A stretch of 64,000 nt of DNA from Candidatus Oxydemutatoraceae bacterium (GTDB lineage Bacteria; Pseudomonadota; Gammaproteobacteria; Poriferisulfidales; Oxydemutatoraceae): assembly GCA_965220085.1 (NCBI GenBank), contig CBDCOZ010000003.1:1472001-1536000 (forward strand), given 5' to 3'. The notes under the pieces are model-generated. The model was given only the letters and a program-made list of their open reading frames with translations, was not told the DNA's origin and made no database searches. Made by a program: the position numbers and the translations under genes. The number at the start of each line of letters is the position of its first letter. Position 1 is the first letter of the stretch. Positions 31,871 to 52,269 of this stretch are shown piece by piece.

Positions 31871-34086
31871 CTATCGCAGCGGGCCTTCCAGGAAGATGCG
31901 CAACCGCAGGTTGATGTCGGCGGACACGCACGTATTCGTCGCCTCGTCCAATACCAGCGGCGCGTCGCACGAAACAAAATCAACGCACACTCCCTCGCGA
32001 AAGAACTTCGGCTGCGTCAAATCCGCGCACACTTGCGCACTGGGCGCTTTGCAATCCGAAGCCATCCCGATGTTGGGCGCATCGCATTCGCACCGATTCG
32101 CATCCCGGTTCAATGTCGCCGCCCCGGCGCATTCCGGAATATCAACGCACACTGTCTCGCTAACGTCAAAGAACTTCGGCGGCATCAATCCCGCGCACAC
32201 TTGCGCGCTCGGCGCACGGCAATCCGAAGCCGTCCCTTCGTTGGGCGAAGCGCATGCGCACTGGCCCGTCTCCGCGCTCAATGTCGCCGGCGCAGCACAC
32301 GAAATAGCAACAACGCAAGCCTGTGCCGCGGCGTCGTACACCTTGCCCTGCTCGTCGCATTCGCAACGGCGCGACCCCGTGCTGGGATGCGTTGTCGCCG
32401 GACATCTGTGACCGGCGACGCAGGTCGTCCCGTCAAAAAACAGCGAAGTCTGCGCCCCGCTCAATTCCCCGCAAACCGCCGGCGACGGCATCTGGCAGCC
32501 CGAGGATGTTTTGACATACGAAGAAACGCATTCGCAGGTGTTGCTTGTCTCGCGCAATTCCGTCGGATGTTCGCAGGTCAAAAACGGATCGCACCGCGCC
32601 GCGCCCGCGTTGTAAAACCGCGGCGGCATCAACTCCGCGCACACCTCCGCGCTTGGCACTCGGCAGTCCGCCGCGTTGCCCGTGCTGCATTCGCACGTAT
32701 TCGTCGCTTCGTTCAATGTCGCCAATGTCGCCGCCGTCGAGCACGTCGCAACGCAAACAAACCCGTTGTAAACCTGCGGCGGATTCAAACTCCCGCACAC
32801 CGGCCCGCTGGGCGTTTGGCATTCGGTCGCGCCGTTGGTGTTGAATCCGGACGGCTCCATGCCGTCCTGACAATAGGCCACAAAACAATCATCGGCGTTT
32901 TCCGCCGTCCATTGCGGAAGGTATTGCAGGGTCGGGCCGAAGTAATGGCGCAGGGTGGTATTGCCATCGGCAAGGCTGAAGCGGGAGGAAAGGTCGGGGT
33001 CGGGACATGTTGATGCGGTTGTTGCGTCCCGCACATTGATGTCGCAGTAGCACACGTCAAATCCGGAGTCAAAGGCGGGATGCTTTCTTGCCCCCCATCC
33101 TTTCGCCGCGCAAGCGTCAAATTGCATGGAAACTTGTTGCGCCCTCTCCTGATCGGTGTATGTGCTTGCTATCTCGCTGAACTCGCATGCTTGCGGGTTG
33201 CGCGCGCATGCGGTCGCGCCGTCGGTATTTTCCCGCGGCGGAATCATGTTCGGACCGCAGTTGTAGACAAACCGCGCGGCGGTGTCGGTCGAAGGGTTTG
33301 GAAACGATGGATCCGGTCCGAACACATCGGCGCATTGCGGACTGCCGTTGCCGTCCAAGAAGCATCCGTCCTCCTCGCCGTCCGGGGAAAGCAGGGGGAT
33401 GACGCATTGGTTGTCGGCCGAGACCGTCCATCCCGCCGCTTTGCATCGGTTTTCCGGCGTGTTAGCAACGCAGGCATCGCCCAGCAGGATGGTTTGCGCC
33501 GGACAAACGGCGCAAACGCCGTCCGCGTTTTCCGTCTCGCCGGCGGGACACTCGCACATCGTGCGCCCGTCGGCGAAAGTCTCCGGCAGGTGGCCGGTGG
33601 TTCCGTCCGGGTCGCAGTTGAAAACATAGCGCGGGTCGCTCTCGTCTTCCGCTGTTGCCGGGTCGTCCGCCGGACGTTGCGGAAAGTCAAGGTTCGGACC
33701 GAAAATACGCGTACAACCGGAGGCGCCGCCCAAAACGCAAAAGTCCAAGGAGCCGGAGTTTATTGACGTGTCGTTGTTTTTTATGAGGCAAACGGATAAG
33801 CTGACAAAACCGGTCGACAGTCGCGTTGTCCATCCTTTGGCTTCGCATTTGTTCGCGCCATCGATGCGCGCACTTTCAATGCATACGCGGTTTTGGGTGG
33901 TGGCGGTAAATCCGGCGGGGCACTCGTCCATGCATTCGGTGCCGTGGATAACCGCCGCACAGCTGTTGGCTTGTGCGTGGGCGGCGTTCGTGGCAAAGAT
34001 GCAAGCGCAAGCGAACAATGCCGCACAAACCCACTCAAGGGTCAGGGAGGGGGGGGGGGGGGGGGTATTATAAACTTCTGATTCAT
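31871..34086 (-). CDS. Secreted Cys-rich (EGF/furin-like) repeat protein with LRLRIFLEGPLR tail; frameshifted at a G17 tract from its SD-supported start
   Basis: ORF body 31871-34065 has a signal peptide ending AAHA|Q, 3 CxAxGW..FGP units and 5 PSxxVCxxL units. AGGAGG precedes ATG 34086 (MNQKFII), which reaches TGA just after the C17 run. The in-frame ATG 34153 has no evident SD. Confidence 0.8.
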
Positions 34087-34382
34087 GCCTATTCCTCCTG
34101 ATAACATATGTTTCTGTTTGGCAAACGCAACCGTACGATGAGCGCCGTGCCATATCACAAGGTGCGAGTCATCTGCAAGTGTCATATCTCCTGTTTCTAG
34201 CAAGCGTAATTATACGATACATGCACACAAACAACATTTAATGAGGGCATAAACTGTTTGTGATTGTTTAATGTCGCACTATACCATAAAGCGCAAGTCA
34301 TTTGCAAGCGCCTCCGTATCCTGCCTCGCTCCCCTTGTCTGCGCCCCATAATACTCCCCTGCTCTGCCGCAGGATACCCGCA

Positions 34383-34420
34383 TTATTGCAAGGGTCTTGA
34401 AGGAAAAGGCGCAGGCGCAG
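34383..34420 (-). pseudogene. Orphan degenerate LEGPLR-tail remnant
   Basis: CTGCGCCTGCGCCTTTTCCTTCAAGACCCTTGCAATAA reads LRLRLFLQDP, then LQ* after a 1-nt shift; fused to an IS HTH fragment. Confidence 0.6.
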
Positions 34421-34429
34421 GGGCGACGG

Positions 34430-34683
34430 GACAGGGTCGGTTAAGCCGTTCATGCCATCGCGCGGATATTTGTGCCGCCACGCAGAGCGTGATGAGCGGC
34501 TGAGGCGGCAGGCATCCATGCCGGCTTTTATCCCGTGCTGATGCCGACAATCCGCAATGTTTCCGGCATGATTCAATCTCTGCGACCGCCTCCGGCGGCC
34601 GGTTGCGTCGGCATCGCCGATGTGTTGATACTACGGCAACTCGTGCTGATGCCGGGAGTTCGGAATGTTTCCGGCATCACTCA
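34430..34683 (-). mobile_element. Degenerate 5' end (terminal repeat plus HTH fragment) of an IS481-like element
   Basis: HGIKAGMDACRLSRSS..WR.KY..DGMNGL matches HGIEATMDACHVSRSSLYRWRKQYQDYGINGL at 43930-44020; terminal-repeat-like GATGCCGGAAACATT ends at 34683, with a second copy near 34575. Confidence 0.65.
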
Positions 34684-34718
34684 TAATAGTCCTCCGCACT
34701 CTCCTCTTATGCTCGGCG

Positions 34719-37031
34719 CTACGTCGCGGCTTTTGCGGAAACGACATAAGCGGCATCCGCGCCGCGCCACTTGGGCGGCAATTTCCGCCCGCGCCGCCCG
34801 CGCTCGCCCGCGTATTCAAGCACATCTTTGTAGGCAAACTTTTTCTTGCGCTTGCCCGCCGCGAGCACGAGAGTCGCGCCCGGCTCAACGCACAACAAAT
34901 AGCTCAGGCGTTCGGCATCGTCCGGCGCCCGCGGAATATTAATAATCTTGGTGCCTTTGCCTTTGGCGAGCTCCGCCAATGCCCGCGCTTTGACCGCCAG
35001 GACATGCCCGGCCGATGTGATGGCAACGACCAGCGCATCCTTTGACCGCGCGACCGGCGCGGCCGCCAGCGCATCCGCGCCGGCGGGCAAACTCATCACT
35101 TGTTTGCCGCCGCGAGCGCGGGTCGCCAGGTTGCCGAGTTCGGTTACGAAGCCATAACCGGCGGTGTTGGCGAGCGCCCATTTGCTGTCGTCGGCGCCCA
35201 TCATCACGCTCGCAAAATCCGCCTTGCCCGACGGCGTCAGGCGGCTGCTAAGCGGCTCGCCTTGCTTGGCGCCGAATTCCAGATCGGCGGCGGGCAGGCA
35301 ATAGCCGCGCCCGGCGGCATCCAAAAAGAATACATTTTGATCGCTTTGCCCGCGCGCCAGCGAAGCAAAGCCGTCGCCGATGCGATAATTCAGCGCGCCC
35401 TCGTCCGCCTCATGCGTTTTGAATCCGAAGATCCACGACTTGCGGGACAGCACCACGGTCACCGGGTGCGCTTCGATATGCGGTCGGATAAGCCGCGCCT
35501 TGCGCGCTTTGCCGCCGCCGACTACGCGGCAACGCCTTGCGTCGCCGCAGTTCTTGGCATCGGTTTTGAGTTCGCTGCGAATCAGCGTACGCAGCCGGCG
35601 CGGCGATGACAGCAACTTCTCGATCTCGGCGAGTTCGCCTTCCAGCGTCTCGGTCTCGCGCCTGATCTCAATCTCTTCCACTTTTGCCAACTGGCGCAAG
35701 CGCATGGCGAGGATGGCATCGGCCTGCTTCTCGCTCAGCCCCAAGCGTTTCATCAAAACCGGCTTGGGCTTGTCCCGATGGCGAATGATCTCTATCACCG
35801 CATCGATATGCAGATGGGCGATCAAAAAGCCGCGCAAAATTTCAAGCCGCTCTTGGATTTTCCGCAGCCGCCACCGCAAGCGCTTTTCTACCGTGTCGGT
35901 TCTAAAAGCGATCCACTGTTTGAGAATCTGCGCGATGCCCATCACCTTGGGTTTGCCGTCCAAGTCAATGATGTTGAAATTAATCCGGCAGTTTTGCTCC
36001 AGATTAGTGGTCGCAAACAGGTGCGACATCAGGGCATCGGCGTCGGTCGCGCGCTTTGTGCCGAGCGCCAAGCGCACCGGGTTGTCGCCGTCGGACTCGT
36101 CGCGCAGATACCGTATCTCAAGGCTCTTGTTGCGCTTCATCTCCTCGGCGATTTCGGTCAGGACCTTGGCCGCCGATACGCGATACGGCAACGCCGTGAT
36201 GATGATCTGATCCTTCTCCTTCGCATAGGTTGCGCGCAGCGTAATCATGCCGCCGCCGTCTTTGTAAATCCGCCGAATCTCCTCTGGCGGCGTGATAATT
36301 TCGCCGCCGGTCGGATAGTCGGGGGCGCGGATGATCTTCAACAACTCGTCTTCCGACAGGCGCGAGTTCTGCAAAAGCGCATCACAGGCGGCGGCGACTT
36401 CGCGCAGATTATGCGGCGGGATATCGGTCGCCATGCCGACGGCGATGCCGGTGGAGCCGTTGAGCAGGATATTCGGCAGGCGCGCCGGGAACTGCCGCGG
36501 CTCTTGCAACGCGCCGTCAAAGTTTGCCTGCCATTCGACCGTGCCCTGGTCCAATTCGGCGAGCAAGGTATCGCAGTACGGCGTCAGGCGCGATTCGGTA
36601 TAACGCATGGCGGCAAACGATTTGGGCGCGTCATGCGACCCCCAGTTGCCCTGCCCTTCGATTAGCGGATAACGGAAACTGAAACTTTGCGCCATCAGCA
36701 CCATCGCTTCATAGCACGCGCTGTCGCCGTGCGGGTGAAACTTGCCGATGACATCGCCGACCGTGCGCGCCGATTTTTTCGGCTTGCTCGGCGCTTTGAG
36801 ACCGAGCTCCGACATCGCGTAGATGATCCGGCGTTGCACCGGCTTCAGACCGTCGCCAAGAAAAGGCAAGGCGCGGTCGAGAATCACATACATCGAGTAG
36901 TTCAGGTAGGCCTGCTCGGCAAACTGCTGAACCGGCACCTGTGTTATTTGGTCATCGGCAAACGGCAGCTTGGTTTTGCGGGCGGCGGCGCGCCGGGTCT
37001 TGCGTTTGGCTGTGTCGGCTTGCGCGGGCAT
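34719..37031 (-). CDS. parC: DNA topoisomerase IV subunit A
   Basis: [31 protein letters not shown], catalytic AAMRYTE. Confidence 0.96.
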
Positions 37032-37966
37032 CTACTTGTCTTTTGCGCCGGGAGCGTGGGTCGGCGCGCGGCCAAAGGTAGCGGCTAATTGAGCTTCCCG
37101 CCTCTTCGCAATCGCATCGGCGAGTTGGCGCACTTTTCGTTCCAGCCACATGGCGGTATCGCTGTCGGGGCGATAATCGGCTTTGCCGAAATGCTCCACC
37201 CGGCCTTGTTCGCGCAAATTGAAGTTATTGTCATAGCTGTCTTTCGTCGCGGAATTATAGACGGCATATCCCACCCCGCCATAGCGTTTGATAACGGAGA
37301 AAACCGGCACATCGCTGGGGCCGTCGGCGATGTATATCATCTGGCTGATCGGCACCCGCCGCTTGCCCTCCTCGATCGCGTCGTTGACCTGAAACTTGTC
37401 CGGAAACTTGTTGATGCCCTTGTTGATTTCAAACACCGCCCGCGTCTTGGTCGTATCGTCCAGCACATAGGCGATGCGATCGAGACACCGACCCCCTTGC
37501 GACAAATCTTTGTCCAAAAACTCGCACCCCCAGACGCCATCCAGATGCTTCGCGACAAGGCTGCCTTCGATCACCTTTTGCAGGCCGGTGCTGACGACAT
37601 AGTGCTCCAGTTTCAATTCATAATCCGCATACCCCTCGATGACGACAGACTTCAGATGCGGCAGAAAGTCCATCACCCCGGGGTAGAACTCCAACCGTTG
37701 CCCCAGCTGCCTGAGCTTGTCGTTGCTCAGGTCTTTGAAGCGCCCGTCGCGCACATAGTCCAGAATATGGTTCAAGTAAAGCAACTCGTTGGTCACATTC
37801 TTATAACCTTGGCGGCGGTATTTGGCGGGCAGCGCGTTCACTTCTTGCCAGAAGGTTGCGCCGTCCGCGCCGTATTCGTCAAAGATGACCTGTTGCATAT
37901 TGCCCGGTATCAGGGTTTTGTCAAAATCCCAGATGACGGCGATGATGTTCTGCGGAAACGGTTGCA

Positions 37967-37967
<1 letters not shown>
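37032..37967 (-). CDS. HAD-superfamily hydrolase
   Basis: WDFDKTL motif I, YVVSTG, TKTRAVFEINKG and YIADGPSDVP; TGATG overlap with the parE stop. Confidence 0.85.
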
Positions 37968-39868
<1,901 letters not shown>

Positions 39869-40074
39869 TTACTTCGGGTTCATGCCCGGCGCTTTCTGAC
39901 GAAGCGGAAAGAATTTCCGACCAACGCCGCCGCCCGCGCACCGCCTCCTCGCAACGGCGCTGGCAGCGGGTGTCACATCGCTATACCGACGCCACCGCTC
40001 GCCTCCTCGCAGAAGCCGGCCGGGGAGTGTCTCGTGCGCACACTCAGAAGCCATCGTGATGCGGTGCGAGGGCA

Positions 40075-40293
40075 AGCCTCGCACTTGCGCCCATCGTCGT
40101 CCCCCGTTTCGGTGAGGGGGCAAGTCTCGCGCTCGCGCCCGTCATCGTTCCCCGCTACGGTGCGCTTGCGGGGATAGTGCGAGGCGTGTCGGAGTAACTA
40201 CCGCCCTACCCGCCAGACCATCCCTCTTCGCTTGCCGACTCCCCCACAAGGGGAAAGTGTCATAGTGCGAGAAGGAATGCCGGTCGGCGCCCG
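40075..40293. repeat. ~200-bp GC-rich inter-cassette repeat, copy A
   Basis: Shares TTGCGCCC(G)TCATCGTYCCC, GTGCGCTTG.GGGATAGTGCGAGG, GTAACTACCGCCCTACCCGCCAG and CTTCGCTTGCCG blocks with the other copies; abuts the stop of the 40294 gene. Confidence 0.8.
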
Positions 40294-40829
40294 CTACCGC
40301 AACGGCCCTTCCAAGAAGAGACGCAAGCGCAAGCGCACATCGGGAGACACCAGGTTGATGGTCATGGTGGCATCAGACCCGGAACTCAGCTCACCGCCGG
40401 CCCTGACATAGAAAGTAAAGTCGACGAATTCGGGAGTCGCAGGGTGCAAGACCAGAGGATGATAGGTTATGGTGCCGATGTCATCCGCTAACACAGTCTG
40501 GCTCACAACGGCGGCGGAGCCGCGCACCCGCAACCTGCCAAGACCATTATCAGGGATACTGCTGATGGTTACGCTATCCAGGGGATCGCCATCCGCATCG
40601 GTAAAAGAAAAGTCGGCCTTTTTGAATACATAGGGGTTGTCTGCGGTGGCGTTGGTGAACACATCTATGCTGCTATCGATGACCATCGGCTTAGCCGCCT
40701 GAGCCTCGGCGCAGAGCGCAAACAGGAGCGGCAGAACGAGCGACCAGAGGCTAAGCCGGGTTACCCTTGCCCGACAATGCGGGGGGGGGGGGGGGGGGGG
40801 GTATTTATATTAGTGATTATGTAATTCAT
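40294..40829 (-). CDS. Secreted single cadherin/Ig-like-domain protein with LRLRLFLEGPLR tail; out of frame at a G21 tract as read
   Basis: AGGAGG-ATG 40829 (MNYIITNINT), C21, then HCRARVTRLSLWSLVLPLLFALCAEAQA in a different frame; 22 or 19 C would restore the frame. Confidence 0.8.
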
Positions 40830-40867
40830 AGTTCTCCTCCTAATAGTAAAAGATAGAAAAAACATTA

Positions 40868-40950
40868 TTAAGCATCCTGCTAAGTCTCTTGTTAAGTGCT
40901 CCGCTAAGTATCTTGCTAAGTCTCCTGTCAAGTCTCCTCTTAAGTATCCA
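40868..40950 (-). repeat. ~12-bp degenerate tandem repeat in the leader, with ~5 GGA motifs on the mRNA strand
   Basis: Units like CCTGCTAAGTCT / CTTGTTAAGTGC; same family as 52270-52400. Confidence 0.7.
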
Positions 40951-41015
40951 AAGTCACACCAGATGTAAGAGTTGATTGCTTAAATATCCTCTATACGTAT
41001 TCGTGTGAAGCCTGC

Positions 41016-41043: not shown

Positions 41044-41272
41044 ACTTCGTACTTGCACCCGTCATCGTCGCAGATTGTACACGGTGTTTGCATTGCCCAA
41101 GCGCAAGCCTCGCACTTGCGCCCGTCATCGTTCCCCGTTGCGGTGCGCTTGTGGGATGCGCGCGCGCGTGCCGGAGTAACTACCGCCCTACCCGCCAGGC
41201 TACCTCCTTCGCTTGCCGGCTCCCGCGAGCAGAGCATGCCGCATAGTGCGAGGGCGTGTCGGGCGGCGCCCG
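41044..41272. repeat. ~200-bp GC-rich inter-cassette repeat, copy B
   Basis: Same conserved blocks; lies between the stop of the 41273 gene and the promoter of the 40294 gene. Confidence 0.8.
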
Positions 41273-42778
41273 CTACCGCAACGGGCCTTCCAAAAAGAGA
41301 CGCAACCGTAGCTTGAGCGCAGAGGGCCGTTCCGGCAATACCAGAAAGATGTTCAGGGAACTGGAATTAGCGCTGATCCTGTTGCTGGCGCCATCGCTGC
41401 CATCATCGGTCACTTTGAAGGTGAAGAAGCTGTATGCCGCCATCGGATTGTCGGGATTTTTGGTGGGCAACTGGTTCGGCGCCGGATAATAGGTCAGAGT
41501 GCCGGCCTCAAGTTGCGCCGCTGTTACGGTAGTCGCTCTGGCGATAGCTACGCCGTTCAGGGACATGGTTCCGGGGCCGTCCAGGCTGCTGATGCTGACT
41601 TCAGCCAGCATGTCTTTATCGGCATCTTCGAACGGAAAGTCGGATGGGCGGAACACATAGGGGTCAGCGGAAGTGGCGGTGGTGGATACCGGAATCCTGT
41701 TGGTCAGTGACATCGGCGCATCATTGACATTGATGACGACGGCGGCGGGGGCGTTGCACAGCGGCCCCTCGGGGTTGCCATCGTTGTCGTCGAAGCTGAC
41801 GCAGACGCGCAGATAGCGGCCGGACTCGGCATCGCCGGGGGTGAAAGTGGTGCTGAAAGTGGAGCTGGTTTGGCCCGCGATGGGGGCATAGTCGTCATCG
41901 GCGGGGGCATTTGCGTTGTCTGCGGGCACATCGGCGGATTGCCATTGCCACATCAATGTGCTGGTGCTGATGCCATCGGGTTCGGTTATGCCGGTGTCGC
42001 TGGCGGTCAGTTCGACATCCTCGGCGGCGGCGGGCGTCACTGTGGGCGCGCCGGTGGCGACGGTGTTCGGGGGCGTGGTGCCCATGGCCTGCACTATGAC
42101 ATTGGCATTGAAGGCGGTAAGGTCGGTTGGCACACCGCCGGTATTGCTACCTGGGTTGATGGTGGCGTGGTGGTAATTACCTGTGGAGCGGTCGGCTTGC
42201 CTGGTCTCGTCAAAGTACACCAGGGCGTAGATGCATTTGCCCTCATCCTCGGCCGCCACTGTGTAGGTCTGGTTGCTGTCGCGGGCGGCAAAGAATGTCA
42301 CGGAGCTGGTGACCGCGGTATCGTAGGCATCGGCATTGCCGGAGGGGACACTCTTGGCGCCGGTGGCGGCGGGGTCGCCGGCGCAGGAGCCGCTGTCGCC
42401 GACCGGCTCTATGACCCAGCGATATCTGGCGTTGCCGTGGGGGAGCCCCGTGTGGTTGATGGCACCGGGGGCGCGGGTGCTATGAATGGACTTGTTGTTG
42501 GAGAAGTGGGGGCTGTACTGTGAGTCGGCGCCGTAGGGGGTCAAGACAGAGTTGGTAGCCACGCGACAGACCTCGCCTACGGCCACATGGGGACTCAGTG
42601 GGTCCGGGTCCATGGATACGGCGCTGGCGTCGGCCTCGCATATCAGTTGCAGATACTGATTTCTGTACTGGTCGGGGGCATCGTTGCGGTGGGCATCGGC
42701 CGCGGATGCGAGAAGCAACAGCGCGGCGAGGGCTGCGTACGCGGCGGCGGCAAGGATGGGGGTGATTTGCCTGGTCAT
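41273..42778 (-). CDS. Secreted protein: unique N-terminal region, WQWQ Ig-like module, cadherin-like module, LRLRLFLEGPLR tail
   Basis: Signal peptide ...LLLASAADA|H; WQWQS..FTP..YLRVCVSF.D; NVNDAP..DFPF.D.D.D..LTYYP. Confidence 0.85.
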   Translation of the reverse strand: MTRQITPILAAAAYAALAALLLLASAADAHRNDAPDQYRNQYLQLICEADASAVSMDPDPLSPHVAVGEVCRVATNSVLTPYGADSQYSPHFSNNKSIHSTRAPGAINHTGLPHGNARYRWVIEPVGDSGSCAGDPAATGAKSVPSGNADAYDTAVTSSVTFFAARDSNQTYTVAAEDEGKCIYALVYFDETRQADRSTGNYHHATINPGSNTGGVPTDLTAFNANVIVQAMGTTPPNTVATGAPTVTPAAAEDVELTASDTGITEPDGISTSTLMWQWQSADVPADNANAPADDDYAPIAGQTSSTFSTTFTPGDAESGRYLRVCVSFDDNDGNPEGPLCNAPAAVVINVNDAPMSLTNRIPVSTTATSADPYVFRPSDFPFEDADKDMLAEVSISSLDGPGTMSLNGVAIARATTVTAAQLEAGTLTYYPAPNQLPTKNPDNPMAAYSFFTFKVTDDGSDGASNRISANSSSLNIFLVLPERPSALKLRLRLFLEGPLR

Positions 42779-42897
42779 GGCATGAACTCCGGTTAGCGGG
42801 TTAGCAGAAAATCCGTCGCCGCAAGCCCGGGAGCCGGAGGCGATTTAGCGGAACCTGGTCGCCACTGCACACTGTTTACACTGTCGGCGCAACGGCG

Positions 42898-44199
42898 TGT
42901 ATGGCGCCAGCACATATTGGAAATTTGGGGCGGATATTGTGTAATTTGTGCCATGGGCGCTTGAAGTTCCAGTCCATAGTGTGGTCGTTGGGTATTAAAC
43001 CATAGCGGGTAGTTTATCATACGCTCATTGAATTCCCGCATATCGGTCAGCAACAAGCCATCTTCAAACTCCGCGAACTCTTCCTGAAGCGCGCGGTTAA
43101 AACGCTCATTGAATGCGTTCATCTTCGGGCATTTCGGATACGTGCAGCAGTGGCGGATACCTTGCTCTTGCAGGCAGCGATCAAACGCGCCGCAGAACTC
43201 GGAGCCGTTGTCGGCGAGCGCTTGCTCTATCTCGGCGGGAAAAACTTGCATCACCAACTTCACAAAGAACTCGGCAGCGACCGTTACTATGAGGGACGCC
43301 GATAGCGAAGTTAAACCGGTCATCAAACCGGCTATGCGAGCATGGTACGCAAACAATTTATCGGTTTCGCCGGCAATCAATCGTGCGATGATGCGCGGCT
43401 TGGGACAACGCAAGCCGCGCTCGCCACACCACGGTTGAATCAGCAGGTATGGCTTGGGTGCGCAAACAATGTTTAATGAGGCACAATAATAAGAGGCACA
43501 AACAACTTTGTTGTTTGTGGCTTCTTGATGAGAGCACAGTAATAAGAGCACAGTGATAAGAGCACAGTGATAAGAGCACAGTGATAAGAGCACAGTGATA
43601 AGAGCACAGTGATAAGAGCACAAACAACTTTGTTGTTTGTGTGTCCTTAGATTTGTTGTTTGTGTGTCCTTAGATTTGTTGTTTGTGTGTCCTTAGATTA
43701 GTTGTTTGTGTGTCCTTAGATTAGTTGTTTGTGTGTCCTTAGATTAGTTGTTTGTGGTTTCTTAAGTTGTTTGTGTTCCACAAACTGTTTGCGGGTTGTT
43801 TATGGGGTGCGCCATGGAAGATAGCTTGGGGGATAGTTTTCGCGGTGTCGCCGAATCTCTGCGATTATCTCCGGAGGCCAGTTGCGCCGGCGTGGCTGGC
43901 GCGGGCAAGCGCTCTGGTTGACTAAGCCGTTAATGCCATAGTCCTGGTATTGTTTCCGCCACCTATAGAGTGATGAGCGGCTGACATGGCAAGCGTCCAT
44001 AGTGGCTTCTATGCCGTGTTCCTCCCATAATGCAAGGGCTTCAAGTTTCTGTTTGGTTTTATAACTCATAGCTGCCTCCTTTGTTGCCAAAGTAGCTATT
44101 TTATAGAAACCTTTGACGCCGTAGCCGATGTGTTGTAATTGCACGTCGGCTACGTCTGCTGTTGAAGCCAAGAATCCAGAATGTTTCTGGCATTATGCA
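42898..44199 (-). mobile_element. Defective IS481-like insertion sequence (HTH 43800-44069 and partial rve core 42900-43450, split by the repeat element)
   Basis: DNGSEF, YPKCPKMNAFNERFNRALQEEF and FNTQRPHYGL motifs; imperfect inverted ends TGTATGGCGCCAGCACATATTGGA / TGCATAATGCCAGAAACATTCTGGA; the first catalytic-Asp region appears deleted. Confidence 0.8.
43459..43794. repeat. AT-rich MITE-like element (copy 2) with a 14-bp GAGCACAGTGATAA array (~6x) and a 23-bp TTGTTTGTGTGTCCTTAGATT(T/A)G array (~5x)
   Basis: Read directly; ends GTGCGCAAACAATGTTTAATGAGGCACAA and AACTGTTTGCGG. Confidence 0.85.
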
Positions 44200-44202
44200 G
44201 CC

Positions 44203-44401
44203 TCGTGCTTGCGCCCGTCATCGTCCCCCGTTGCGGTGCGCTTGCGGGGATAGTGCGAGGGCGTGTTATGGAGCACAAACAATACTCAATTGTTTGTGGC
44301 TTCTTAGGAGTCACTACCGCCCTGCCCGCCAGAATATCCCCCCTTCGCTTACCGACTTCCGCGAGGGGAATCATAGCGCGAGGCTTGTCGGGCTGCGCCC
44401 G
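44203..44401. repeat. ~200-bp GC-rich inter-cassette repeat, copy C, with an inserted CACAAACAA-N7-TTGTTTGTG palindrome
   Basis: Same conserved blocks; the extra AT-rich segment ~44267-44308 is absent from the other copies. Confidence 0.8.
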
Positions 44402-46381
44402 CTATCGCAGCGGGCCTTCCAGGAAGATGCGCAACCGCAGGCGCAACCCCGTCAGATTGATGGACATGTGGCGGTTTCCGCTGGACCGGCTGCCATCGCT
44501 TACAGAGAATATGAAGCTGGCATAGTTGGCGGTGGGGGCGGTGCCCGCCGGGGGATACCAGGTGAGGCCGCCCAGATTGTCGGCGGGCACTCTGATTCCG
44601 CCGACCACTGGGTCGCCGCCGTAGCGGAATGTGCCTGCTTTTGTGGTGGTGGCTATGCCGATTTGGTCCAGGGCCGCGCCCTCATCCTGGTCCATGAATG
44701 GGAAGTCGGAGATCTTGAAGATGTATGGATTATCGGCATCTGCCGAGATGGGCACATCCACCGAGGTATCGGTGCTGGTGGGCGCATCATTGGCATTGGT
44801 CACCTGCTCCCCGGCGGAGCACAGGGTGGGGGCGGCGATGGTGCCGCCCTCGGATGCCGGGGTGGCATGGCTGTCCATAAAGAATACGCAGACCCTTATG
44901 TACATGCCCACCTGGGGTTGGTCGGGGACGAATACGGCATCATCGGCCGCGTCTATGGGCGCATAGTCGGCGGCGGCCGGGGTGCCGCTGGCGGGGGCGG
45001 CGGCCTGGTACCATTGCCAGCGTTCGGTGTCGGTGTTTATGCCGTTGGGTTCGGTTATGCCCATGGTGCTGGCGCGCAGCTCTTCATCCTCGTCGTAGGC
45101 GGTGCCGGTCAGGGAGATCACTGAGGGGCTGCCGGTGGCGGCGGCCTGGGTTGCGCCCAGCAGGTCTATGGTGAGGGTGGATGCGTCCACCGCGGTGTTG
45201 GCGGCTCCGGTGCTGTCATCGCGCACTCTGTAGGTGAAGCTGTCGTAGGCATTGCCGGGGGTGGCACCAGTGGCGGGATAGTATGCCAGGGCATTCAGCT
45301 GGGTCAGGCTCAGCTGGGTGTTTGCGGCTATGGTGACGCTGGAATCGCCCGCCACCACCAGGGTGCCGCCGGTCGGCGGGCTGGCGATGGTGATTCCGTC
45401 CAGGCTGTCGCCGTCATCGTCCATGAATGGGAAGTCGCCGCTTGCAAAATCATGCGGGCTGGCAGCGGTGGCGGTGGTGGACACCGTCACAGTGGAATCG
45501 TCGCCGATGGGGGCATCGGCAACCTCGGCGATGATGGTGCTGGTGGAGCACAGGGGGCCTTCGCTGGTGGGGGTGGAGAACATGTCCATAAAGCTGGCGC
45601 AGACGCGGATATATTGGCCGACATGGGCCTGCAGGGGAGTGAATGTGTTGTCGGTGGCCCCGGCTATGGCGGCAAAGGTGCCGCCGCTGGTGGCGGATTG
45701 CTGCCACTGCCACATCAGGGTGGCGGTGTTTATGACATTGGGTTCGTTGATGCCTGCGGTGCTGGCGGTCAGCTCCACATCCTCGTTGTGTGCCGTGCCG
45801 CTGCCCGCTGCGGCGACAGTGGGCGCGCCGCTGGCGGTGGTTGCCGGCGCCGCCACCAGCCTGATGCTGAGGGTGCCGCCACTGGCAGACTTCTCGCCGC
45901 CAGCGGTCACACTGTATACAAAGTTAGCGTAGGGTTGCGCGGGCGGGGATGGGGATTGGCCCGCTGCCGGATAGTAGGTTATGGTGCCGATGTCGGCCAG
46001 TGCCACATCCATCATGGATGAGGCGGAGATGACGGTGGAGCCCACCCTCAGCGTGCCGATCAGAGTGCCACGTTCCAGATGCACTATTTCCAGCGCATCG
46101 TCATCGGCATCTTCGAATGCAAAATCAGCCGCCTTGAAAGTGTACGGAAATTCTGCGGTGGCACCGGTGAATACCTCTACGGTAGCGCCACTGGGCGCCG
46201 GCTTGGCCTGGGCGACCGGACCCCCTGCGGGTGCTGAGTCGCTATGCGGTTGCACCGGTGCGTGACCGCAGAGCACAAACAGGGCGAGCAGGGCTGGCGG
46301 CCAGAGGCTGCGCCTGCTCAACCGTCGCCCAGAGGTCCCGGGAGGGACATCGCAGATAGCGGGGGATATGCGGATATTCAT
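44402..46381 (-). CDS. Secreted protein with alternating cadherin-like and WQW Ig-like modules (A-B-A-B-A) and LRLRIFLEGPLR tail
   Basis: Signal-like SLWPPALLALFVLCGHA; three DFxF.D.D..L..(Y/W)YP modules; two WQW..IRVC modules; GGAG SD. Confidence 0.85.
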   Translation of the reverse strand: MNIRISPAICDVPPGTSGRRLSRRSLWPPALLALFVLCGHAPVQPHSDSAPAGGPVAQAKPAPSGATVEVFTGATAEFPYTFKAADFAFEDADDDALEIVHLERGTLIGTLRVGSTVISASSMMDVALADIGTITYYPAAGQSPSPPAQPYANFVYSVTAGGEKSASGGTLSIRLVAAPATTASGAPTVAAAGSGTAHNEDVELTASTAGINEPNVINTATLMWQWQQSATSGGTFAAIAGATDNTFTPLQAHVGQYIRVCASFMDMFSTPTSEGPLCSTSTIIAEVADAPIGDDSTVTVSTTATAASPHDFASGDFPFMDDDGDSLDGITIASPPTGGTLVVAGDSSVTIAANTQLSLTQLNALAYYPATGATPGNAYDSFTYRVRDDSTGAANTAVDASTLTIDLLGATQAAATGSPSVISLTGTAYDEDEELRASTMGITEPNGINTDTERWQWYQAAAPASGTPAAADYAPIDAADDAVFVPDQPQVGMYIRVCVFFMDSHATPASEGGTIAAPTLCSAGEQVTNANDAPTSTDTSVDVPISADADNPYIFKISDFPFMDQDEGAALDQIGIATTTKAGTFRYGGDPVVGGIRVPADNLGGLTWYPPAGTAPTANYASFIFSVSDGSRSSGNRHMSINLTGLRLRLRIFLEGPLR

Positions 46382-46750
46382 TGAATTACTCCATGGGTTG
46401 ATGAACAGGTTTGTGCGCCGGGCTTTTCGCTATTCTACCACAGACGCGGAATCATTTTGCAAGTGACCGGGCCCGGGCAGGCAAAAAAGGACCCGGCGCA
46501 GACCACCGGGCTTTCGCTCAAAGAGATCGGACTGCCATCGCAGGCGGGCCCGCAGGCGCAGGTCGCTCTGCGAGGCCTGCAGGCTGAATTTGCGGGTGTT
46601 GCGTTACCAGTGCGGCTGTGCCATTGAGGGCGGCCGCCGAGGCTGTCGCAGTTGCTGCCCAGAGAGGCGGTTATGCCGCTCCGCCGGTCTGGTTGGGCCT
46701 GGCGGCTATGTCCGGGCTCAGGACTGTCACGCTTGTGGGTGTCGCTTATC

Positions 46751-46858
46751 TGGCGGGCGGCGCCTGCTATCGCAACGGCCCTTCCAAGAAGATGCGCAAG
46801 CGCAGGAGCAGATGCTCCGCCAGATTGATCGTGATGGCGGCGGCGGCGGCAGAGGTTT
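46751..46858 (-). repeat. Direct repeat of the 3' end of the 50640 gene (orphan tail ITINLAEHLLLRLRIFLEGPLR*)
   Basis: 46751-46826 is identical to 50624-50699; similarity extends ~30 bp further with mismatches. Confidence 0.92.
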
Positions 46859-47355: not shown

Positions 47356-48606
47356 ATGAACACCCTTGCATTTGAATCCGCCCCATCCGTCGCCGCCGCC
47401 CTTTTTGGGGAACGGGCGGCGCTGTTGCCGTCGGTGACCGAAGTTTTTGAGTTGGAGCTTGCCTTGCTGGAGCTTGGTCAACTCGCGCCCCGCGAAGCCA
47501 TTGAGCGCGGAGCGTATTTTATGAAAATCGGCGGCAAGCCCACCCGCCATTTTTCCATGTGCGCCGCCAATGGGGTCGCCCGCAAGGGACAATCCGCCAT
47601 GACGCGGGATTACTTTGAGGCGGGGCGGTTTTCCACCGGATACTCCACCCATTCGCTGTTCCCCTATCGGGGAAAGTTCCACCCGCAATTGGCGAAAGCG
47701 CTGATTAACATTATCGGCATCCGCCCGGGGCATCTCCTGCTGGATCCGATGTGCGGGAGCGGCACCGCCAATCTGGAGGCGGCGCTGTTGGGAATCAATT
47801 CGGTGGCGGCGGACAAAAGTCCGTTTTGCCGCTTGATGACCCGCGTTAAGCGCGAGTCACTCGACATTGGGCGCAAGGATGTTGAATCTCTGCCCGCCCG
47901 GGCGGACGAATTGTTCGCCTTTTTTGGCGAGCAAGGTGTCGCTCAAAAATATTCCGAAGTTCGCGACGAGAAAAAGGGGCGCATTTTTGGACTGTCGATG
48001 CTCGCGTAGTTGGACGCGATGGGCTATGCGGAGCGGGTGAAAAAATCCGGACATCGCGAGTTGTTCGCCAAGGTGTTGGCGCGATACGCGGCCACCGTCG
48101 AGCGGGCGTTGGATTTTTTGCCAAAGAGCGGGCTGGGGAATGTGGACATCCCCGAAAACGGCGATGTTCTGGACATACCGCTGCCGGACAAAAGCGCGGA
48201 CGGAATCATCACCTCTCCGCCCTACTCTTTCGCCATTGACTACGCCGCGAACGATTCGCCGCAACTCTCCTACTTGGGGTGCGACATCGCCGCTCTGCGC
48301 GAGGAAATGATCGGGTTGCGCGGGCGCGGCAAAGCGGCGCGGCTGGAAAATTACTTTGCCGACATGAACCGCGCCTGCGCGGAAATGGGGCGGGTTTTGA
48401 AGCGCGGGAAGCACTGCGTCATTGTCATCGGCTCCAACACCAATCAAACCGGCGGCATTCGACTGGAGGGCAAGGTGATAGAGGGGTGCGAAGCGGCAGG
48501 GATGAACTTGATACGAACCGTGCTGAAACCCATCAAGGGCATGCGCAACACGATGAGCGAAGAGCATATCCTCTTCTTTCGCAAGAACGGGGGAAAACGG
48601 CAATGA
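47356..48606 (+). pseudogene. Amino-DNA methyltransferase interrupted by an in-frame TAG at 48007-48009
   Basis: THSLFPYRGKFHP and DPMCGSGT (motif I) lie before the stop; TSPPY (motif IV) lies after it in the same frame. Confidence 0.85.
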
Positions 48607-49605
48607 CCGCCCCCCTGTTGACCGCCGAGGAAAAGTGCGCCCGGGTGTTCGCAAAGAACACCTATTACTTTTTCGACTCCGACGAGCAGGATTCGCACGA
48701 GGGACACATTCACGCTCTGCGGGAGATTTTGACGGGACTGAAAGCCCGGGTCGAATCCTGCCGCGACGAAGAAGGCAAGAAGCGGGCGTTTGACGACATG
48801 CTGGCGGAGCGGGAACATGGGTTGCGCGCCCTGCTGGCGTTGACCGGCTTTTCCAACGAATCCCTGCGCCGGATTGTCACGCTGGCGCGCATTCGGGACG
48901 ACAGGGAATTTGACCGGATAGTGAATAAGAGCGAATGGCTTGGGCCCGGCGACAAGTTTGGCGCAAATGGAAAGGAGTGGAAGGATGCGAAAATTGCCGG
49001 GCTCATCCGGAAAAATCCCGCATTCCGGAGGGGCATTGTCAATTTGTTTTTTGAGGGCGCATCGGTGCCGTTCTTGGCGCGGACGCTGCCGCCCTTTGAG
49101 TTGCGGAAATTTTCGCTGGGCAAGTTGAATTTCGATCCCGCCGAGATGCTGGACACGCTGGTCCGTTACAAGGAAAAAGGGCCGCATGCCGCCAAGGGCG
49201 GCAACAATGCGGAAACCGCGATTGCCCTGCGTCATAGAGGCGCGGGGACTCCCCTGCGAAAGGGGGGACTTGCCCAAATTGGCGGAGTTTGAACCCTCGG
49301 CGAAGCGGACGATGGACTTCATCATTCCCGACAAAAACAATCCGAAGGTCGTCATTGAATGCTCCTACCTGACCACCACTTCGTCCGGACAAGGAGACAA
49401 GGCGAAAACCGAACTGGCGATTCGGGAGTTGCTGGCGCGACACTACCCCGCTTGCAAGTTTGTGGGGTTTCTGGACGGAATCGGCTGGATGGTTCGCCGC
49501 TCCGATTTGAAGCGCATGGTTGGCGCTTTTGACGATGTGTTCACCCTGCGCAAGGACGAGTTGACGCGCTTCGCCGCCCTGCTGGACAAGATTGGGGGCA
49601 AATGA
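48603..49605 (+). pseudogene. DpnII-family-like type II restriction endonuclease, frameshifted near 49220-49240
   Basis: C-terminal frame has MDFIIP..P.VVIECSY.TTTSSGQGDK and GFLDGIGW..R..DL; ATGA overlaps with both flanking MTase genes. Confidence 0.72.
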
Positions 49606-50597
49606 CAATGTCCGCCAAATTGATACAGGAGGGGATCCGCGAGGGCGACTGCTTGGCGGGGATGTCGCGCCTGCCGGACTCGTGCGCGGACATGGCGTTC
49701 GCCGATCCGCCGTTCAACCTGCGGAAGAAATACAAGGCGCACAAGGACCGAATGGAGATGGACGACTACCTCCGCTGGTGCGAGGAGTGGCTACGCGAAA
49801 TGGTTCGCGTTGTGAAGCCCGGCGGGGCGATTTTCGTCCACAACATTCCCAAGTGGCTGACTTTCTACGCCGCGATTCTGAATCGCCTGGCGGTTTTCAA
49901 GCACTGGATCGCCTGGGACGCGCCCACCTCCCCGATGGGGAAATCGCTGCTGCCGTCGCATTACGGCGTGCTGTATTACATCAAGGACGGCGAGCGCGCC
50001 AAGTTCCGCGACACGCGCTTTCCGCATCCGCGCTGCCGCCGTTGCGGAGGGCTGCTGAAAGATTACGGCGGAAAAAAAGACGGGCTACATCCGTTTGGCC
50101 CGCTGGTTTCGGATGTGTGGACCGACCTGCATCGCATTCGCCACAGCCGCCATCGGGACGACCATCCGTGCCAATTGCCGGTGCCGTTGCTAGAGCGGCT
50201 GGCGCTGATGAGCACGGACGAGGGCGACCTGATTCTGGACCCGTTTATGGGAACGGGAACAACGGCGATTGCGGCGGCGCGTCTGGGGCGTCGGCATTTG
50301 GGGTTTGAACTGTCGCCGGAATACGCCGAGATTGCGCGCGACAAAGTTGACCGCATTTCGGCAAATTCGCGGCTGGGCGACGCTTGGGTTTCTTTTCACC
50401 TGAACCAGCCGGTCACCATTCGCGACGCCGATTGGGAGAGCATCGCGCCCTTTTTCATCATTCCGGAGCCGCGGCGGGAAATTGACCGCGTCAAAATTCA
50501 ATTGCGCGGAAAGTTTGACGCAACAGCGGCTTGCGAGTGCAAACAGGGATATTCGCAGCCCTCTCTGGTGCCAATAGCGGCAAAAGCGGGCGGATAG
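49602..50597 (+). CDS. Beta-class N6A/N4C DNA methyltransferase, intact
   Basis: FADPPFN (motif IV), HPCQLP and LDPFMGTGTT (motif I). Confidence 0.9.
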   Translation: MTMSAKLIQEGIREGDCLAGMSRLPDSCADMAFADPPFNLRKKYKAHKDRMEMDDYLRWCEEWLREMVRVVKPGGAIFVHNIPKWLTFYAAILNRLAVFKHWIAWDAPTSPMGKSLLPSHYGVLYYIKDGERAKFRDTRFPHPRCRRCGGLLKDYGGKKDGLHPFGPLVSDVWTDLHRIRHSRHRDDHPCQLPVPLLERLALMSTDEGDLILDPFMGTGTTAIAAARLGRRHLGFELSPEYAEIARDKVDRISANSRLGDAWVSFHLNQPVTIRDADWESIAPFFIIPEPRREIDRVKIQLRGKFDATAACECKQGYSQPSLVPIAAKAGG

Positions 50598-50639
50598 GCC
50601 GTCTCCCGCTCTTCCCCAAGGCGTGGCGGGCGGCGCCTG

Positions 50640-52232
50640 CTATCGCAACGGCCCTTCCAAGAAGATGCGCAAGCGCAGGAGCAGATGCTCCGCCAGATTT
50701 ATCGTGATGGTGGCAGCGGTGGCGGAAGTTTTGTTGCCGCTGCCATCGCTGCCATCGTCGGTTACCTTGAAGGCGAAGGCGGCGTAACCGGGCTGGGCAC
50801 TCTGCTCGGCCGCCGGCCAGTAGGCGATGGCGCCGATGTTGGCGGCGGTCACGATCCGACCGACAGTGGCGTCAGCGCCATCCACTTGCAAGGTGCCGGC
50901 GCCCGGCAGGCTGGCAATCTCCACACTGACCAGATTGTCGTCGTCCTCATCGGCAAAGGGAAAGTCGGCGGCGGTGAATCTGTAAGGCTCGCTCATGGTG
51001 GCATCCGCCGACACATTTATCGCGCGGTTTTGGGCCCGAGGCGCATCGTTTACGTTGCGCACCCGGGCGGCGGCGGAGCACAGATCCTCCACAGTCTCTG
51101 GGGTCTCGTGGAGATCCTTAAAACTGATGCAGACCCGGATGTACAGTCCCACATGCGCCTGCAGGGGGGTGAATAGTACCCCGGTCGCGCCGTTTATGTC
51201 GGCAAAAGCGCCATCGCTGGCGGGGGATGACTGCCATTGCCACCTCAGAGTGCTGTTGTCTATTCCATTGGGTTCGGTGATGCCATCGGTGCTGGCGGTC
51301 AACTCGGCATCCTCAGCGTAGGTCGGGTTGTCCGCGGTGGTAGCCGGGATTATTGAGGGTCTGCCAGTGGCGGCGGTCTGGTCCGGCGATGTCAGAGTGA
51401 TCCTGAGGTCGGCACCAACGCTGGTTTTATTGTCAGTGCCATCGTCGCCATCATCCACCACTCTGGCCTGGAATGATGCTGTGAATGGTGATCTTCTCTG
51501 GGCTGGCGGTGGCGGATAATAGGTCAGGGCACCGGCGGCCAGTTGGACCACGGTTATGGTTCTTGTGGGCGTGTTGCTCTGGGTCAGGTCTGTGTCATCC
51601 AGGGTCATGATGCCACTGGAGGGCTGGCTGTGTATGATGACACCGGCCAGCATATCGCCATCGGCATCGGTGAACGGAAAGTCGGATGCCCGCAACGGAT
51701 GCGGGTTGTCGGCATCGGCGTTTGCATTTACCGTAACAGTGGCATTTTGTGACACCGGCTTGTCATTGACATTGGCCACAGCGGTGGCTATCTGCAGGCA
51801 TCGCTGCTCGGCATTGCTGGCGGTGTCGGTGAAAGACGCGCAGACCTGCAGAAACTTGCCCACCTCGTCATCGCCCGGAGTGAATGCGGCATTGGTCGCC
51901 ATGGCGATGGCGGCGTAGGCGCCGCCATTGGTGTCGGCCGCGCTCCACTGCCAACTGAATGTGCCCAAGCCATCGGTGTCGGCTATGGCGGTGGAACCGT
52001 TGCCGCCGTTGGCGGTGATGGCGGAGTCCTCAGTGGGAACCATTATTCCGCTGGCGTAGGCCACCGCTGGCATGCCGGTGGCCGGGCTGTTGGTCTGCGC
52101 CTGCACCTGACCGCAGAGCGCAAACAGGAGCGGCAGAATAAGCGACCAGAAGCTATGCCGGGTTACCCTTGCCCGACAATGCGGGGTAGGGGGGGGGGGG
52201 GGGGTATCGATATTAAGTATTTTGTGATTCAT
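50640..52232 (-). CDS. Secreted protein (B-A-B-A Ig/cadherin-like modules) with LRLRIFLEGPLR tail; poly-G tract in frame
   Basis: AGGAGG-ATG 52232 gives MNHKILNIDTPPPPPTPHCRARVTRHSFWSLILPLLFALCGQVQA|Q; G4-TA-G16 at 52183-52204. Confidence 0.87.
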   Translation of the reverse strand: MNHKILNIDTPPPPPTPHCRARVTRHSFWSLILPLLFALCGQVQAQTNSPATGMPAVAYASGIMVPTEDSAITANGGNGSTAIADTDGLGTFSWQWSAADTNGGAYAAIAMATNAAFTPGDDEVGKFLQVCASFTDTASNAEQRCLQIATAVANVNDKPVSQNATVTVNANADADNPHPLRASDFPFTDADGDMLAGVIIHSQPSSGIMTLDDTDLTQSNTPTRTITVVQLAAGALTYYPPPPAQRRSPFTASFQARVVDDGDDGTDNKTSVGADLRITLTSPDQTAATGRPSIIPATTADNPTYAEDAELTASTDGITEPNGIDNSTLRWQWQSSPASDGAFADINGATGVLFTPLQAHVGLYIRVCISFKDLHETPETVEDLCSAAARVRNVNDAPRAQNRAINVSADATMSEPYRFTAADFPFADEDDDNLVSVEIASLPGAGTLQVDGADATVGRIVTAANIGAIAYWPAAEQSAQPGYAAFAFKVTDDGSDGSGNKTSATAATITINLAEHLLLRLRIFLEGPLR

Positions 52233-52269
52233 GAGTCTCCTCCTCATAGTAAAATCTTATATAAGAGCT

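Follow-up and report, generated by a model that had tools for sequence, protein, structure and literature searches.

A portable terminal peptide on secreted proteins of a Candidatus Oxydemutatoraceae bacterium, a candidate surface-sorting tag

Why should secreted proteins with unrelated bodies all end in the same few residues? The question is raised by a stretch of 64,000 nucleotides (referred to below as the window, C3:1472001-1536000) from the genome of a gammaproteobacterium, Candidatus Oxydemutatoraceae bacterium (assembly GCA_965220085.1, contig CBDCOZ010000003.1; 2.49 Mb on three contigs, rated 99% complete). A prediction made from the letters of the window alone had pointed to five minus-strand genes, with stops at 31871, 40294, 41273, 44402 and 50640, whose products share a C-terminal tail of 12 residues followed by TAG, and had proposed that the tail serves a new sorting or display system. 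A six-frame search agrees as to the five genes, their shared tail and their TAG stops. I will call the tail the tag and class it as one of a known kind, the terminal surface-sorting tags. Positions without prefix are those of the window, and those beginning with C1 or C3 are those of the contigs.

A peptide maintained by protein-level selection

The core motif of the tag was found 225 times in a six-frame scan of the genome, and in 219 of these cases a stop codon follows directly. The stop is TAG behind 138 tails, TAA behind 53 and TGA behind 28, so TAG is not the rule that the five genes of the original prediction might suggest, and read-through or recoding of TAG can be rejected. Open reading frames (ORFs) of at least 150 amino acids (aa) are terminated by 185 of the tails. 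The remaining 34 lie on shorter ORFs, many of them in tandem arrays of duplicated 3' ends. The 185 tagged ORFs comprise 162,241 codons (486.7 kb), which is 19.5% of the genome, and eight of them encode proteins of 4,009 to 15,193 aa.

In these 185 ORFs the conserved unit extends over 14 residues rather than 12: [LIV]-R-L-R-L-R-[LIV]-F-L-E-G-P-L-R, then stop. The last seven residues, FLEGPLR, are invariant (185/185). The seven positions before them, -14 to -8, are occupied by L (117), I (46) or V (14); R (143) or N (16); L (180); R (184); L (185); R (185); and L (131), I (31) or V (23). The tag is rarely missing where it would be looked for: among 172 ORFs of at least 200 aa whose bodies resemble those of tagged proteins, 160 carry it and 12 have none at the C-terminus. 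Two of the 12 end in single-residue variants (FLEDPLR and FLEGSLR), two bear the tag at the N-terminus, one has a GlyGly-CTERM signal, and the rest are frameshifted or truncated.

Written as a degenerate DNA pattern, RLR-x-FLEGPLR-stop has 211 matches in this genome, none when the pattern is reversed as a control, and none in 40 relatives, which excludes chance. No family covers the tag in sequence searches of Pfam, NCBIfam and PDB, and nothing relevant came from a full-text search of the literature for the peptide strings or from a literature search on autotransporter, sponge symbiont, adhesin and C-terminal.

The manner in which the tag is encoded indicates what has been conserved. The heptapeptide FLEGPLR is specified by 79 different 21-nt codings in the 185 ORFs, and translation of the 159 DNA versions of the last 12 codons yields only 8 peptides. 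In pairwise comparison, the proportions of synonymous and nonsynonymous differences (pS and pN) are 0.504 and 0.028 over the last 12 codons and 0.536 and 0.008 over the last seven. Past the stop there is no conservation of DNA: the mean identity of the following 36 nt is 32%, compared to 36% for non-homologous sequence before the tag. The 79 codings, the use of all three stops and the ratio of pS to pN mean that selection acts on the peptide and not on the DNA, and the codon pattern taken with the lack of conservation after the stop is something that neither gene conversion nor a mobile DNA element can explain. The tag is thus a portable peptide maintained by selection at the level of protein. 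A conserved RNA hairpin at the stop was considered and rejected on the same lack of downstream conservation; a search of the window with Rfam found two tRNAs and nothing else.

Outside this genome the tag is seldom met. When several last residues were allowed, the DNA pattern occurred in one of 53 genomes of the order, the present one, and not in the other 52. Patterns ending in Arg or in Gln gave no match in about 185,000 species genomes and the JGI metagenome contigs, collections that may omit records of this genome. A profile of 45 tagged ends, compared to 1.84 billion representative proteins, gave 95 matches at E ≤ 0.001, of which 84 are proteins of this genome. Four of the 11 others end in ...LRLR[LV]FLEGPLQ: P0155, from Logan; P0161, a protein of 3,215 aa from ENA; and P0157 and P0164, from an NCBI metagenome-assembled genome labelled Candidatus Oxydemutatoraceae bacterium. 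The remaining seven match by their cadherin-like part only or by chance. Judged from these sequences, the tag is rare but older than the species, its last residue being Arg or Gln. It is therefore not confined to a few recent paralogs, a finding that would have spoken against the original prediction: there are 219 copies, their synonymous divergence is nearly saturated, and a variant exists in other organisms. The prediction also likened the tail to a (K/R)VFLEGPY strand in some surface proteins of Bacteroidota, which occurs in none of the 11 outside profile matches, no search aimed at that motif having been made.

Cargo of the tag and what stands in its place

By a simple rule of hydrophobicity and cleavage site, a leader resembling a signal peptide is present in 169 of the 185 tagged ORFs, the giants included. 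Runs of at least five Pro codons (poly-C tracts) are found near the start of 71 of the 185; such runs precede the signal peptide, as at 40700-40809 and 52180-52256. The 112 residues before the tag fall into 10 mutually dissimilar clusters (of 79, 42, 36, 21 and 2 members, and five singletons), among them immunoglobulin (Ig)/cadherin-like sandwiches, a two-Cys 'EGPLCS' module, Cys-rich repeats and PPC domains. Cys-rich cargo, defined by at least 10 Cys making up at least 3% of residues, accounts for 44 of the 185, with up to 66 Cys in one protein, and this argues against the threading of an unfolded chain as in type V secretion.

Does the tag belong to the domain that it follows? An AlphaFold2 model of the small tagged protein of the window, built on an alignment of 21 paralogous ends, has a mean pLDDT (AlphaFold's per-residue confidence) of 87.3. 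Its beta-sandwich is complete and extends to residue 113; residues 117-130, which are the tag, come out as coil, their pLDDT dropping from 76 to 60. Lying outside the modelled sandwich, the tag is thus appended to the preceding domain and does not form its last strand; the model in this way shows the tag to be no part of that domain's predicted fold. Foldseek, given the cargo domain, returned only generic Ig-like matches, none at E ≤ 0.001. The sequence of the tag itself has the periodicity of a beta-strand (hydrophobic moment 3.32 at 180 degrees vs 1.04 at 100 degrees), and the amphipathic strand originally predicted is borne out to this extent. One face would present five Leu and the other Arg, Arg, Arg, Phe and Glu, with a Gly-Pro break and two residues behind.

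The tag also occurs at the other end of proteins. Three (C1:23868-25292, C1:36358-38001 and C3:1171425-1173515) begin with a common signal peptide, about 25 residues, the tag and then GGS, a Gly/Ser linker. Two of the three are PPC-repeat proteins, and the third resembles a trypsin-fold peptidase of the lysyl-endopeptidase type (ESM Atlas score 0.97, with a weak match to Trypsin_2 in Pfam). The PPC-repeat proteins of this genome are divided among two with the tag at the N-terminus, two with it at the C-terminus (T101 and T188) and one with GlyGly-CTERM (C3:1167979-1169079). The PPC-type domains of the N-tagged proteins are matched in NCBIfam by families in which PEP-CTERM is usual.

Leaders resembling that of the N-terminal cassette were seen elsewhere. 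At C3:216775-221028 they belong to a tandem set of secreted paralogs, at least four in number, and three of the set match Trypsin_2. Further ORFs with similar leaders, known from their signal peptides only, lie at C3:189880-194736.

Homologous proteins of other organisms make it possible to ask what stands in place of the tag. In the cadherin-like family, the ENA homologues P0021, P0028, P0032 and P0037 have the same '...TMTINLV' end to the passenger, and they continue through a linker into a PF03797 barrel, the translocator of type Va autotransporters, that ends in ...RLRW. The passenger of P0021 is 83.5% identical to the tagged gene at C3:152862-153371. No intact PF03797 barrel scores over the cut-off anywhere in the present genome, and tblastn with the four barrels found two relics only, at C3:835582-836031 and, within the window, at 46535-46764. 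(The single weak match to PF03797 is a FadL-type protein and not an autotransporter.)

In the peptidase family, the N-tagged protein is collinear with a paralog, P0176 (72% identity), and with the ENA homologues P0177-P0179. These four have no N-terminal tag and end in a Gly run, a transmembrane (TM) helix and RRR, which is GlyGly-CTERM, and the N-tagged copy terminates just before the point where their GlyGly-CTERM begins. The function of that signal is known from VesB, a trypsin-like protease of Vibrio cholerae: according to PMC6219818, GlyGly-CTERM is required for VesB to be retained on the surface once the T2SS (type II secretion system) has exported it, and the protein is otherwise released. 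These alignments, then, show the tag to occupy the site of known surface anchors in relatives, in at least two families: that of the type Va barrel in the cadherin-like family and that of GlyGly-CTERM in the trypsin-like peptidase and PPC-repeat families.

The Cys-rich family to which the gene at 31871 belongs is different, in that its homologues end in another conserved Cys-rich module and have neither tag nor barrel. In the ENA homologues of 31871-34153, P0062-P0089, this C-terminal module is of about 60 residues and contains Cys (…FPCRGLFKHLRSCN…NPFFCG…), and several of them (those whose N-termini are shown) start with Pro runs. The module may be another undescribed sorting or anchoring module.

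The resemblance of the tag to the end of the barrel (LEGRLHW in P0037 beside LEGPLR-stop) suggests to the eye that one is a relic of the other. The idea is not supported. A position-specific scoring matrix (PSSM) of the 185 tags ranks the terminal window of the barrels 69, 12 and 1 of 287, with all scores negative, and MAFFT placed the tag against segments of the barrel other than the last strand.

How the tag might act

That the tag is a functional, portable sorting or anchoring tag seems to me highly probable. The mechanism that I propose, in which the tag is a portable beta-strand for surface retention or sorting, is held more tentatively and falls somewhat short of probable. All tagged cargoes would share one fate at the cell surface, conferred by the tag. 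They would cross the inner membrane via Sec and the outer membrane through the T2SS, a route suggested by elimination, by the homology of the tagged peptidase to substrates of the VesB type and by the need of Cys-rich cargo to fold in the periplasm. As a cationic amphipathic beta-strand, the tag would then retain the proteins on the cell non-covalently, either by docking on the anionic surface of the outer membrane, its lipopolysaccharide (LPS), or by strand addition to an outer-membrane protein.

The genome has the machinery that this would call for. There is a complete T2SS operon (gspC-D-A-B-E-F plus pseudopilins), with GspC bearing a PDZ-like end and with ExeA-like and GspB-like proteins, and a second secretin cluster is present, making two secretins compared to 2-4 in relatives. 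Dependence of the tagged proteins on the T2SS would fit this Gsp operon and the Cys-rich cargo. No match to IAT_beta, ShlB/TpsB or TamB, the type V translocators, was found in the genome, and its one Omp85 protein is BamA, ordinary beside those of 11 relatives. A rhombosortase is encoded at C3:475041-475553 (TIGR03902, 93.7 bits vs a cut-off of 84). It serves the few genuine GlyGly-CTERM proteins, and nothing ties it to the tag. A search of the genome for exosortase (PF09721) gave nothing. Just upstream of the T2SS operon are genes for a membrane protein in which Wzy_C (O-antigen-ligase-like) is fused to TPR repeats and for a protein with TPR and a retropepsin-like aspartic protease (C3:449817-452069 and C3:448561-449739).

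Several considerations weigh against the proposed mechanism. All 11 family relatives that were tested possess GspD and GspC and lack the tag, so the presence of the T2SS is permissive and not specific. Cargoes of 4,000-15,193 aa exceed by far any T2SS substrate known to me. That the last seven residues do not vary and that a stop comes immediately behind them (219/225) looks more like the requirement of a protein pocket than of binding to lipid or LPS, and a lone strand of 10 residues is a weak anchor for proteins in the megadalton range. Finally, the analysis turned up neither a receptor nor an enzyme nor a partner specific to the lineage. Heptads in which hydrophobic and acidic residues alternate were searched for, with 12 matches, the best being P0182 (C3:1155685-1156575), a very acidic protein of 296 aa of outer-membrane type, with strands that alternate hydrophobic and acidic residues and with no Pfam family. 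It was rejected as partner of the tag, since homologues exist in 13 of 18 untagged family relatives. A predicted complex of GspD 27-445, GspC 60-283 and the last 40 residues of a tagged protein, made with alignments, scored 0.00 and has no weight either way.

How does the tag compare to the sorting systems already described? The original prediction held that it fits neither the PEP-CTERM, GlyGly-CTERM and LPXTG signals, which need a TM helix, nor the terminal signal recognized by the beta-barrel assembly machinery (BAM), and this is upheld, there being no TM helix in the tag and no aromatic residue at its end. GlyGly-CTERM is close in kind, as a short terminal tag on Sec-exported proteins that reach the surface via the T2SS, the route proposed here for tagged proteins as well. 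It is tripartite, however (Gly/Ser motif, TM helix and basic cluster), and is cut by an intramembrane protease with the attachment of a moiety containing glycerophosphoethanolamine. The tag has Arg at every second position and no hydrophobic helix, stands at the exact end of the protein and can also be N-terminal. Rhombosortase is found in the same genome, as it should be for GlyGly-CTERM; the sequence expected of that signal is not found in the tag. PEP-CTERM/exosortase, LPXTG/sortase and MYXO-CTERM/myxosortase are likewise terminal sorting tags on dozens of surface proteins per genome. Each of these, however, consists of three parts, among them a TM helix, and is served by a dedicated membrane protease or transpeptidase; such a helix is lacking in the tag. 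It contains no PEP motif and is matched by no NCBIfam CTERM model. Its sequence also lacks an LPXTG-like motif and a basic tail, no search for a sortase having been made.

Other systems share the breadth of the cargo. The C-terminal domain (CTD) of type IX secretion system (T9SS) substrates is one shared terminal signal on many and varied proteins of a genome, both surface and secreted ones, with giant adhesins among them. It is a folded domain 70-100 residues long, which PorU cleaves off and for which anionic LPS is substituted; it is strictly C-terminal and restricted to Bacteroidota. In contrast, the part shared by the tagged proteins is 14 residues, preceded by 10 unrelated clusters and modelled by AlphaFold2 as coil; genes of the T9SS were not searched for. 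The C-terminal signal of type I secretion, as in RTX-type adhesins, which stays uncleaved and is served by an ABC/MFP/TolC exporter, would not be expected together with a Sec signal, and a Sec-type leader is found in 169 of the 185 tagged ORFs (exporter genes were not surveyed). Type Va autotransporters have passengers of the same families, and the last strand of their barrel also alternates Leu and Arg. Their barrel (PF03797), however, comprises about 280 residues in 12 strands and ends in Trp, where the tag amounts to one strand; no barrel is present in the tagged ORFs, the stop comes right after the tag, and the tag is found as well on families that are not those of autotransporters. The signal read by BAM needs a terminal aromatic residue, Phe, Trp or Tyr, and alternating hydrophobic residues in phase with it; the tag ends in Arg (185/185) or Gln, its single Phe being in phase with the Arg face. 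Short strands of alternating hydrophobicity are also known from the donor strands of chaperone-usher and type V pili and from designed beta-peptides of alternating Leu/Lys or Leu/Arg, which complete the sheet of a partner or lie flat on an apolar/polar interface. The Ig fold of the tagged cargo is not incomplete, according to AlphaFold2, and no usher or chaperone context was seen.

Of the alternatives to surface retention by a docked strand, one keeps the T2SS but gives the tag another task. The tag might itself be a linear address for export by the T2SS, with retention at the surface secondary or absent. The T2SS is the sole suitable conduit through the outer membrane that was found, and at least 10 unrelated folds would hardly each have a conformational T2SS signal of its own. 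A tag at either terminus would suit presentation end first, and an invariant heptapeptide with an obligatory stop or Gly/Ser behind it suggests a protein pocket. Moreover, EpsC's PDZ domain is needed for the secretion of VesB, a relative of the N-tagged peptidase family (PMC12369372). The GlyGly-CTERM that has been replaced in this family is nonetheless a signal for retention and not for export (PMC6219818), and the giant cargoes are a problem for any passage through the T2SS. The T2SS orthologues of untagged relatives look ordinary. A Pro at position -3 is ill-suited to the strand addition of a canonical PDZ domain. On balance I consider an export address rather unlikely.

A second possibility is that the tagged proteins are autotransporters that have dispensed with the barrel, the tag pairing with strand 1 of BamA and the passenger being threaded out through BamA. 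The largest tagged families descend from type Va autotransporters, the alternation of Leu and Arg is that of the last strand of their barrels (...LRLQARLRW), the tag is of about the length needed to span the membrane, and the genome has one BamA and neither TamA nor TamB. A passenger N-terminal to a strand running from the outside to the periplasm would be extracellular. What makes this quite unlikely is the tag with cargo behind it at the N-terminus, the Cys-rich cargoes noted above (44/185, up to 66 Cys), the derivation of the Cys-rich and peptidase families from something other than autotransporters, the lack of a terminal aromatic residue, the failure of the tag PSSM to single out the last strand of the barrels, and a BamA that is ordinary beside those of 11 relatives.

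It seems improbable, too, that the tag is the substrate of a processing enzyme, analogous to sortase, rhombosortase or PorU, that cleaves it or joins it covalently to a lipid, LPS or peptidoglycan moiety. All other widespread terminal sorting tags act in this way, and the tag has replaced signals of that sort. The extreme invariance of seven residues is typical of the recognition site of an enzyme, and the genome has an expanded set of secreted trypsin-fold peptidases, one of them itself tagged. No candidate co-occurring with the tag was identified, however, exosortase was not found, and there is no TM segment to keep a precursor at a membrane enzyme. The change of the terminal Arg to Gln in a second lineage argues against a step by an Arg-specific protease.

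The donor strand imagined by the original prediction, plugging interchangeable passengers into the groove of a common scaffold much as cohesin-dockerin pairs or the strand exchange of pili do, is very improbable: neither scaffold nor receptor was found. The amphipathic character of the strand and its occurrence at either end would agree with the idea, and PPC-repeat proteins, which have several identical modules and are themselves tagged, could be taken for the scaffold. There would then be two or three candidate scaffolds for about 185 passengers, no genome-specific protein with an evident open groove or a matching acidic strand was found, and the modelled cargo domain is already a complete sandwich without the tag. 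As for a tail without function of its own, carried along as the 3' end of genes in a multigene family that recombines, and multiplied there by duplication and gene conversion, the family does duplicate and recombine its 3' ends (as seen in the 34 tails on short ORFs, often in tandem arrays, and in the orphan at 46770-46811, copied from the gene at 50640), but the notion is hardly credible and is the sole rival excluded, contradicted as it is by the codon data (pN/pS of 0.014-0.055 at a pS of about 0.5, and a single heptapeptide written in 79 codings), the lack of DNA conservation past the stop, the at least 10 unrelated domain contexts plus the N-terminus of three proteins, the conservation of the tag in other organisms, and its retention by 160 of 172 body-homologous ORFs, most of the other 12 being broken.

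To return to the tag as a strand that retains proteins at the surface, LPXTG, PEP-CTERM, GlyGly-CTERM and the T9SS CTD have all opened the way to a machine of their own and to display tools for the cell surface, and the tag has the defining features of none of them. It is borne by about 185 proteins of up to 15,193 residues, and in homologous proteins it has displaced two known solutions to the problem of anchoring. It is conceivable, though I would sooner bet against it than for it, that one transplantable strand at either end suffices both for targeting to the outer membrane and for anchoring there, an undescribed form of Gram-negative surface display; to the same degree, barrels and GlyGly-CTERM anchors may have been made redundant for about a fifth of coding capacity. 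That the mechanism behind the tag is categorically new is a possibility that I rate at about a third. If it is true that the T2SS reads the tag, this would be the first linear, transferable T2SS address; should the tag complete an outer-membrane barrel or dock on one, a trans-acting anchor resembling type V and made of one strand would be seen for the first time.

Either way the tag bears on how the T2SS chooses its substrates and on how large adhesins are held on the outer membrane without barrel or lipid, and with 14 residues that may be placed at either end it lends itself readily to testing. Through it one also sees how a marine bacterium, uncultured and probably host-associated, with a streamlined genome, builds and varies a very large repertoire of surface proteins. 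New in this account are the census, the evidence of selection drawn from codons, the form with the tag at the N-terminus, the replacement not only of barrels but of GlyGly-CTERM, the variant ending in Gln, the absence of all type V translocators and the second barrel relic, which lies in the window.

Tagged genes of the window and their surroundings

All the tagged genes of the window are on the minus strand. The first, at 31871-34153, encodes 760 aa with 65 Cys (tag codons 31874-31915, stop TAG 31871-31873). The bodies of the other four have weak cadherin/Ig matches in Pfam, in line with the contrast drawn originally between one Cys-rich body and others that are Ig/cadherin-like. The small tagged gene occupies an open frame of 171 aa (40294-40809), within which the ORF beginning with ATG is 40294-40686 (130 aa; tag 40297-40338). 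The original description of the five as signal-peptide proteins needs qualification here: the signal-peptide-like leader of this gene is found upstream of the first ATG, where the frame is still open, with a run of Pro codons ahead of it, and no start codon precedes it within that frame, an arrangement consistent with phase variation. The next two encode 501 aa (41273-42778, tag 41276-41317) and 659 aa with Ig/cadherin-like repeats (44402-46381, tag 44405-44446). The last is a cadherin-like gene of 535 aa (50640-52247, tag 50643-50684), which has 43 matching stretches within the genome and ENA homologues that bear PF03797 barrels.

Two orphan tails had also been reported. That at 46767-46811 is exact (46770-46811) and is followed by a stop. 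It lies in a region of 108 nt (46751-46858) that is 94% identical to the 3' end of the gene at 50640 (50624-50731). Directly downstream of it, also on the minus strand, is the barrel relic at 46535-46764, what is left of the final ~75 codons of such a barrel from a type Va autotransporter, frameshifted and recognized by tblastn with the barrels of P0028 and P0032 and by reading in three frames. The other orphan, placed near 34383, proved to be a decayed copy on the minus strand (LRLRLFLQDP, 34391-34420) with no stop behind it.

The intergenic regions adjoining tagged genes hold tandem arrays (40857-40949 and 52261-52403; 43512-43637; 43606-43789; 31465-31683), with units of 12, 14, 23 and 73 bp. 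The 12-bp unit, TAAGTCTCCTGN, is found upstream of two different tagged genes. A GC-rich repeat of ~60 nt (…GCGCCCGTCATCGT…CGGTGCGC…) occurs at 40075-40184, 41106-41167 and 44199-44260, downstream of the stops at 40294, 41273 and 44402, and at 52442-52503, upstream of the gene at 50640. A second repeat adjoins it each time (40184-40216, 41166-41198, 44300-44332 and 52505-52537). Both look like intergenic elements of the repetitive extragenic palindromic (REP) type.

Between two of the tagged genes, an ORF at 42793-43623 on the minus strand matches the rve_3 integrase core domain (E 2.4e-8) and is probably the remnant of a transposase. On the same strand, genes for topoisomerase IV/gyrase subunits of A type and B type, with one for a HAD-family hydrolase between them (34719-37031, 37032-38006 and 37967-39862), are embedded among the genes for surface proteins.

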